Source: Escherichia coli
Lineage (GTDB): Bacteria > Pseudomonadota > Gammaproteobacteria > Enterobacterales > Enterobacteriaceae
Strand: one strand, 5' to 3'
Length of the DNA: 64,000 nt
NCBI RefSeq assembly: GCF_013315695.1
Contig: NZ_CP054353.1
The first letter of the stretch is position 1. Each line of letters opens with the position of its first letter. The notes below the pieces were generated by a model that had not been told where the DNA came from, ran no database searches, and saw only the letters and a list, made by a program, of their open reading frames with translations. This document shows, piece after piece, positions 46,741 to 47,184 of this stretch. Position numbers and translations under genes: made by a program.

Positions 46741-46827
46741 GGTGCGAGGGGGGGGACTTGAACCCCCACGTCCGTAAGGACACTAACACCTGAAGCTAGC
46801 GCGTCTACCAATTCCGCCACCTTCGCA
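46741..46827 (-). tRNA. leuV: tRNA-Leu(CAG), copy 1
   Basis: Reverse complement is GCGAAGGTGGCGGAATTGGTAGACGCGCTAGCTTCAGGTGTTAGTGTCCTTACGGACGTGGGGGTTCAAGTCCCCCCCCTCGCACCA (CAG anticodon, encoded CCA). Confidence 0.93.
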
Positions 46828-46861
46828 CAGTCATCTTACTTTTTTTGATATCGCCTCGTTT

Positions 46862-46948
46862 GGTGCGAGGGGGGGGACTTGAACCCCCACGTCCGTAAGG
46901 ACACTAACACCTGAAGCTAGCGCGTCTACCAATTCCGCCACCTTCGCA
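46862..46948 (-). tRNA. tRNA-Leu(CAG), copy 2 (identical to copy 1, same 34-nt spacer; likely tandem duplicate)
   Basis: Identical 87-nt sequence; the roughly 121-bp tRNA-plus-spacer unit is repeated. Confidence 0.9.
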
Positions 46949-46981
46949 CAGTCATCTTACTTTTTTTGATATCGCCTCGTT

Positions 46982-47069
46982 TGGTGCGAGGGGGGGGGAC
47001 TTGAACCCCCACGTCCGTAAGGACACTAACACCTGAAGCTAGCGCCTCTACCAATTCCGCCACCTTCGC
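46982..47069 (-). tRNA. tRNA-Leu(CAG)-like, variant copy (one extra C in the 3' C-run and one G-to-C substitution)
   Basis: 88 nt; sense strand has GGTAGAGGCGCT instead of GGTAGACGCGCT and nine rather than eight Cs before TCGCACCA; flanks also differ. Confidence 0.75.
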
Positions 47070-47097
47070 CCAGTGCGAGCAATATCAACGTGGTTTT

Positions 47098-47184
47098 TGG
47101 TGCGAGGGGGGGGACTTGAACCCCCACGTCCGTAAGGACACTAACACCTGAAGCTAGCGCGTCTACCAATTCCGCCACCTTCGC
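47098..47184 (-). tRNA. leuQ: tRNA-Leu(CAG), copy 4
   Basis: Identical to copy 1; promoter-proximal position in the array. Confidence 0.9.

Follow-up and report, generated by a model that had tools for sequence, protein, structure and literature searches.

The stretch of Escherichia coli DNA analysed here (64,000 nucleotides, hereafter the window) holds four tRNA genes in all, and ARAGORN assigns each of them to tRNA-Leu(CAG) on the minus strand, with the anticodon CAG at position 35. The four genes are also matched over their full length by the Rfam model RF00005 (model positions 1–71), in every case at or above its gathering threshold of 29 bits. Both searches thus return the four tandem genes of 87–88 nt that had been described in an earlier reading of the letters alone (the sequence-only reading). 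According to the annotation, the array is located between rsmC and yjjZ/fhuF, on the rsmC strand, and the locus is the leuQPV operon. The operon itself, its promoter and its processing belong to textbook knowledge.

In the direction of transcription, with every feature on the minus strand, the array begins with the leuQPV promoter (47226–47253), composed of TTGACG, a 16-nt spacer, TAGAAT and then a GC-rich discriminator, which a consensus scan matches at 10 of 12 positions. The gene transcribed first, leuQ (47098–47184), is a canonical 87-nt tRNA identical to K-12 leuQ (ARAGORN; 48.5 bits in Rfam). It is separated by the 28-nt leuQ–leuP spacer s1 (47070–47097), the same as the K-12 spacer AAAACCACGTTGATATTGCTCGCACTGG, from the second gene, an 88-nt variant tRNA-Leu(CAG) hereafter called leuP* (46982–47069), which is characterized by C24G, a run of nine Cs and C48, and which scores 33.2 bits. 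Then come a first 34-nt spacer s2 (46948–46981), equal to the K-12 leuP–leuV spacer; an extra canonical tRNA-Leu(CAG), leuV' (46861–46947; ARAGORN, 48.5 bits), the putative product of a duplication; a second, duplicated s2 (46827–46860), recognized by sequence comparison with K-12 and by repeat search; and finally leuV (46740–46826), again a canonical tRNA-Leu(CAG) by ARAGORN and Rfam, which adjoins the 3' end of the convergent yjjZ. The 87-mers of leuQ, leuV' and leuV are mutually identical. No intrinsic terminator was found after leuV in a sequence scan; a Rho-dependent terminator has been described downstream of this gene, and RNase P is reported to release the tRNAs of the leuQPV transcript unaided, with no contribution from RNase E (PMC2190699).

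The footprint of the duplication lies at 46739–46980, where two units of 121 bp (46739–46859 and 46860–46980) follow each other without interruption and are 100% identical, both in the repeat search and by direct string comparison. The repeat, described as near-perfect by the sequence-only reading, is therefore slightly better than claimed. Each unit comprises one tRNA gene and one 34-nt spacer, joined head-to-tail with no foreign sequence at the junction, and TRF describes the array as a repeat of period 121 with 3.7 copies.

At the same site K-12 MG1655 carries three genes (leuV, leuP and leuQ), the number given for it in the sequence-only reading. The window and K-12 share the site, the orientation, the promoter, the 28-nt and 34-nt spacers and the canonical 87-nt tRNA, as seen in an alignment of the two operons, and the promoter region is moreover invariant across the window, K-12, CFT073 and RIVM_C036204. 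They differ in gene number, with four genes in the window (Q-28-P*-34-V'-34-V) against three in K-12 (Q-28 nt-P-34 nt-V), the additional unit being a copy of a tRNA gene with the 34-nt spacer. They differ also in the gene at the leuP position, which in the window has G24 and nine Cs and lacks the U48 of K-12 leuP. The latter is itself a natural variant, as its C48U change in the variable arm converts a G-C pair into G-U; position 48 of leuP is C in the window, AF10 and AF14, and T in K-12, CFT073 and RIVM_C036204. The variant copy occupies the leuP position, with the 28-nt spacer upstream and the 34-nt spacer downstream, both identical to those of K-12. The "different flanks" formerly attributed to it do differ from those of the other copies, but they are simply the normal flanks of leuP.

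Some further differences were noted around this comparison. A re-sequenced K-12 MG1655 (NZ_CP025268.1) shows C48 in leuP where the reference has T48, and nine Cs in leuV where the reference has eight, which suggests consensus errors or cross-copy polishing within the repeat. The intergenic region between leuQ and rsmC (47185–47383 in the window) is about 200 nt long, against 268 nt in K-12. REP-type elements matching Rfam naRNA4 are found in this region in K-12, J3 and other genomes (73 bits in J3; positions 779–861 and 1528–1659 of the extracted loci L006 and L001, respectively), and no naRNA4 hit was obtained at the gathering threshold in the corresponding region of the window.

The two changes that set leuP* apart, C24G on the tRNA strand (C at plus-strand position 47046) and a run of nine Cs (plus-strand Gs 46990–46998) where the other three copies have eight, are those noticed earlier as a G-to-C change and an extra C in the third copy along the plus strand. 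The D stem of this tRNA, as aligned by Rfam (linear numbering), consists of G10-C26, C11-G25 and G12-C24, G13 and A23 not forming a standard pair. C24G turns G12-C24 into a G-G mismatch, which is flagged as non-standard by cmscan, and one of only three D-stem pairs is lost. The ninth C can be accommodated either as a 1x2 internal loop opposite A5, where the acceptor stem of the canonical tRNA is itself mismatched (A5-C), or as a bulge at the junction of the acceptor and T stems, a register that carries no nearest-neighbour energy penalty. In either placement the 12-bp stacked acceptor/T helix, built from the 7-bp and 5-bp stems, is interrupted.

The cost of each change was read from Rfam scores at loci that carry it: 48.5 bits for the canonical gene, 48.5 with U48, 46.1 with C26U and U48, 41.5 with nine Cs alone and 33.2 with G24 and nine Cs. 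Accordingly, the nine-C run alone costs 7.0 bits and G24 a further 8.3 bits beyond it, a total of 15.3 bits. As the canonical tRNA itself is not predicted as a cloverleaf by unconstrained minimum free energy, we compared energies with the cloverleaf imposed, and these fall from -30.0 kcal/mol for the canonical tRNA to -25.5 kcal/mol for leuP*, a loss of 4.5 kcal/mol for which G24 accounts for 2.7; the gap between the cloverleaf and the best competing fold widens from 3.6 to 8.7 kcal/mol. The U48 and U26 variants keep their pairing as G-U wobbles, and G24 is the only pair-breaking change among the variants seen at the locus. The U26 case comes from UTAK-13 (NZ_CP169008.1), whose leuP has C26T besides T48, with G10-C26 becoming a G-U wobble at a cost of 2.4 bits.

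Other parts of the molecule are unaffected. The anticodon CAG, the discriminator A73, the encoded CCA and the long variable arm are unchanged in leuP*, and the nucleotides listed as identity elements of E. coli tRNA-Leu (A73, A14, A15, G18/G19, U54, U55, C56 and A58; PMC6614811) are all intact in the alignment. E. coli LeuRS, on the other hand, relies for recognition on the tertiary core, which the D arm builds (PMC6614811). On these structural grounds leuP* is probably an impaired tRNA and possibly a nascent pseudogene, although it may retain partial function, given that it passes the Rfam threshold, is called by ARAGORN and keeps its identity nucleotides. The earlier suspicion that this copy is divergent or impaired is strengthened by its recurrence in clone assemblies (see below) and by the loss of a D-stem pair and 15 bits, the impairment being deduced from structure. 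With RNase P alone processing the transcript, a misfolding second module could affect leuQ as well, and we may speculate that it would delay the 3' maturation of the latter.

We asked how common the four-copy state is with a 155-nt spacer-tRNA-spacer query, which is fully covered only where the array has an extra unit. Full coverage was reached in 9 of 5,426 complete E. coli genomes (0.17%), all the others stopping at 81%. The locus is thus found with two copies (AF3), three (most genomes) or four (the nine genomes), and neither K-12 nor most E. coli carry four copies with the variant, which is confined to one clone. BLAST returns five places in the MSB1_4I record and four in typical genomes, counts that are consistent with leuT being also present elsewhere. 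Four sequence patterns occur among the nine: Q-P(U48)-C-V in RIVM_C036204 and UTAK-13; Q-P(U48)-U48-V in 873.10, ECOCN22, E100341 and EC7072022BGR; Q-C-C-V in AF10 and AF14; and Q-P*-C-V in MSB1_4I alone. None of the other eight arrays has a damaged copy, and the FhuF, YjjZ and RsmC protein alleles beside the array differ among the nine genomes. That the arrays fall into at least three patterns and have different alleles at their flanks implies that unequal crossover recurred independently; since the other lineages keep four intact genes, the duplication needs no damaged copy. Hybrid copies found in the population, in which U48 is confined to the second copy or shared by the second and third, are those that independent unequal exchanges between leuP and leuV would give, with crossovers on either side of position 48. 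The origin by unequal crossover proposed in the sequence-only reading gains from these independent arrays, from a unit that is exactly one tRNA plus one spacer and from the two-copy clone-mate AF3, while the mechanism itself is deduced from the arrangement.

Positions 35325–64000 of the window match E. coli MSB1_4I (NZ_LR898874.1) with 100% identity. The two differ elsewhere, as the window has an additional IS1 copy at 25441–26209 and, beside an IS5/ISKpn26 element, 2,178 bp (33147–35324; the 3' part of tsr, and lgoT) that are absent from NZ_LR898874.1, which rules out that the window is exactly that record; it must stem from a different isolate or assembly of this clone. The window contains three IS1 copies (11244–12011, 12418–13186 and 25441–26209), and since two of them share about 91% identity with the third, it harbours two IS1 variants. 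The yjjA gene (40354–40848, minus strand) is interrupted by an in-frame stop at codon 28, owing to a T at window position 40766 where AF3 has C; AF3 has the gene intact, and the MSB1_4I annotation lists it as a pseudogene.

The exact variant with its flanks was found in one of the 5,426 complete genomes, MSB1_4I, every other genome showing at least two differences. An exact scan with a 30-mer spanning G24 detected it neither in JGI metagenome contigs nor among GTDB species representatives, an absence that shows rarity and has no bearing on whether the variant is real. Additional assemblies of the clone were located through contigs encoding the exact FhuF and RsmC proteins of the window. Two of these, UGAA01000001.1 and CP164702.1, which are independent, long-read and chromosome-scale, have flanks with 0–4 changes in about 8 kb relative to the window, and both contain the array of four genes, with G24 in the corresponding copy. 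In UGAA01000001.1 this copy has nine Cs and the other three have eight; in CP164702.1 every copy has six or seven Cs, which is generic homopolymer noise. A T/A polymorphism at window position 48924 splits the clone into two groups, one with the window, MSB1_4I and UGAA01 and the other with AF3, CP164702 and the KE1371xx scaffolds, and since both groups hold the four-copy array with G24, the array predates the split and is ancestral to the clone. From the concordance of the assembled sequences, we conclude that neither G24 nor the four-copy layout is an artefact and that both are inherited. The nine-C run, slightly less certain than G24, is very probably real too, as it was called independently and in the same copy only.

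Within the clone, AF3 (NZ_OZ547117.1), with four mismatches over 20.7 kb, has two canonical copies at positions 20741–20948 of the extracted locus L016, separated by the 34-nt spacer, and lacks the 28-nt spacer and leuP*. Its state is either a derived deletion of the 236 nt that contain leuP* or an assembly collapse. A separate observation concerns UGAA01000001.1, which has G5 where the window has G4 at 46496 inside yjjZ, the called product being 84 aa long against 78; this is probably a homopolymer error of that assembly, and it bears on the trust to be placed in its nine-C call.

All together, these data favour a model, which we regard as probable, in which the growth-rate-controlled leuQPV operon of the MSB1_4I lineage went from three to four genes by a 121-bp duplication and has a damaged gene at the leuP position. 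One 121-bp unit would have been duplicated when the identical 87-bp tRNA genes underwent unequal homologous exchange or replication slippage, resulting in the arrangement promoter-leuQ-28nt-leuP*-34nt-leuV'-34nt-leuV. A single transcript would start from the one promoter, and RNase P would cut out the individual tRNAs. leuP* carries two inherited lesions: C24G, removing a D-stem pair, and, very probably, a +1 slip in the C8 homopolymer, adding a nucleotide to the acceptor/T helix. The resulting gene would be a decaying paralogue, most likely one whose product is poorly folded, processed or charged, and the three canonical genes left would keep the dose of tRNA-Leu(CAG) supplied by the operon at the level typical of the species. 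The data show directly how the array is built, how rare it is, that it recurs in other lineages, that the variant is inherited within the clone and that predicted pairing is lost; we infer the recombination mechanism, the impairment of leuP* and any link between that impairment and the extra copy.

Several other readings have to be weighed against this model. An assembly artefact, in which the variant positions (especially the ninth C) and possibly the copy number are long-read consensus errors in a tandem repeat and the real locus is canonical throughout, would find some ground in the fact that no C/G homopolymers of eight or more exist in the whole window apart from the four tRNA C-runs, and in the calls of nine or of six to seven Cs that appear at random copies in unrelated assemblies: nine Cs in all three genes of J3, in leuP of FDAARGOS_943 and OkiPb01683 and in copies of E100341 and EC7072022BGR, with further miscounts in UARX01 and CP025268. 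Moreover, the array is reduced to one collapsed copy, filled with an N gap or found at the end of the sequence in short-read scaffolds of the clone (KE137127, KE137071, ABXTHW01), which makes these scaffolds uninformative, and the two copies of AF3 could reflect such a collapse. Nevertheless, G24 and the four-copy layout recur in three assemblies of the clone that were deposited separately (MSB1_4I, UGAA01 and CP164702), and among the 5,426 genomes the four-copy array with G24 occurs in no other. UGAA01 has its additional C in the same copy as the window and eight Cs in the remaining three; with a nine-C leuP in only 17 of the best 30 matches listed among the 5,426 genomes, a chance match in the same copy is unlikely; and the unique 28-nt spacer is no more than about 80 nt away from either variant position. 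We thus consider an artefact very improbable. Somewhat less remote, but still unlikely in our view, is that leuP* is a neutral and functional variant, which would fold with the help of tertiary contacts and modifications, be processed and charged normally and represent a polymorphism still awaiting removal by gene conversion. In favour of this reading, the molecule is above the Rfam threshold, is called by ARAGORN and has intact identity nucleotides, the canonical tRNA tolerates its own A5-C mismatch in the acceptor stem, and the allele has persisted through the diversification of the clone. The clone is very young, however (0–1 SNP per 8 kb), so that persistence says little, and the loss of a third of the D-stem pairs together with a nucleotide added to the 12-bp acceptor/T helix, amounting to 15.3 bits and 4.5 kcal/mol, argues against normal behaviour, as does the fact that no other lineage in the 5,426 genomes has G24 or any pair-breaking change, although wobble-preserving ones occur.

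The order of the events is a further point at which readings diverge. Damage to leuP may have come first, with selection later favouring a duplication of leuV that brought the number of working genes for the most-used codon back to three. Such compensation would account for the presence in the clone of exactly three canonical copies plus a damaged one, and it agrees with reports that the tRNA pool and the fitness in rich medium are both affected when leuVPQ is deleted (PMC9981150) and that P. fluorescens lacking a tRNA gene regains fitness through duplication of a tRNA gene (PMC7661048, PMC10954465). We regard it as a tentative possibility that falls short of being likely: no three-copy array with leuP* was found among the 5,426 complete genomes or the few clone assemblies examined, eight other four-copy arrays have no damaged copy, AF3, if assembled correctly, has only two copies at the locus, and a duplication followed, under relaxed selection, by the decay of leuP through a point mutation and a homopolymer slip fits the data equally well. 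Neither of the possible intermediates, a three-copy array with leuP* or a clone member with four intact copies, was encountered among the complete genomes and the clone assemblies examined. It is scarcely credible, finally, that leuP* is kept for an altered activity, either as a D-arm mutant with relaxed decoding that would cause miscoding at a low level from one gene copy in five, or as a poorly cleaved module that would tune the output of its neighbours through RNase P.

A D-arm mutant with such an effect is the Hirsh suppressor, the G24A change in E. coli tRNA-Trp, which relaxes decoding and in which a G-U wobble becomes A-U, strengthening a D-stem pair. leuP* resembles it in having a single D-stem substitution with the anticodon unchanged, but its G24 destroys a pair and comes with an insertion in the acceptor helix. 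With regard to copy number, the nearest parallel is the glyV array of E. coli, in which, as at leuQPV, identical tRNA genes are arranged head-to-tail and their number differs by one between strains. For glyV, "three or four identical copies" have been described and attributed to duplication within the genome (PMC4539685), whereas the four-copy state of leuQPV is rare (9/5,426) and, in this clone, one copy is structurally damaged. Tandem duplication also raises tRNA gene copy number in P. fluorescens SBW25, where the duplications are large-scale, appeared in laboratory evolution once a deletion had been made on purpose, and had a measured effect on fitness (PMC7661048, PMC10954465); at leuQPV the unit is only 121 bp, the setting is natural and the link with fitness is only hypothetical. 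RefSeq annotates the locus of MSB1_4I as four tRNA-Leu genes, and a full-text literature search on leuQPV returned nothing on copy-number or sequence variants. As far as we could find, then, the four-copy leuQPV and the leuP* allele have apparently not been discussed, and they constitute a new instance of known variation rather than a new system.

The description given by the sequence-only reading is thus borne out and its interpretation supported: the feature is real, rare and, mechanistically, ordinary strain-level variation. From a methodological point of view, long-read assemblies repeatedly show homopolymer errors in the C8 run of these genes and short-read assemblies collapse the array, so that neither copy number nor "variant tRNAs" at this locus should rest on a single assembly. 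From the standpoint of E. coli biology, one of the most highly expressed tRNA operons exists in two-, three- and four-copy states within the species, and in two- and four-copy states within one clone if AF3 is correctly assembled. The leuP* allele, with G24 and nine Cs, offers natural material for testing how far a type II tRNA tolerates damage to the D stem and the acceptor helix, and the clone that carries it is a test case for whether selection holds tRNA gene dosage at three. Should the compensatory order of events turn out to be true, leuQPV would provide an example from nature of a tRNA gene duplication favoured by selection because it offsets a damaged paralogue.
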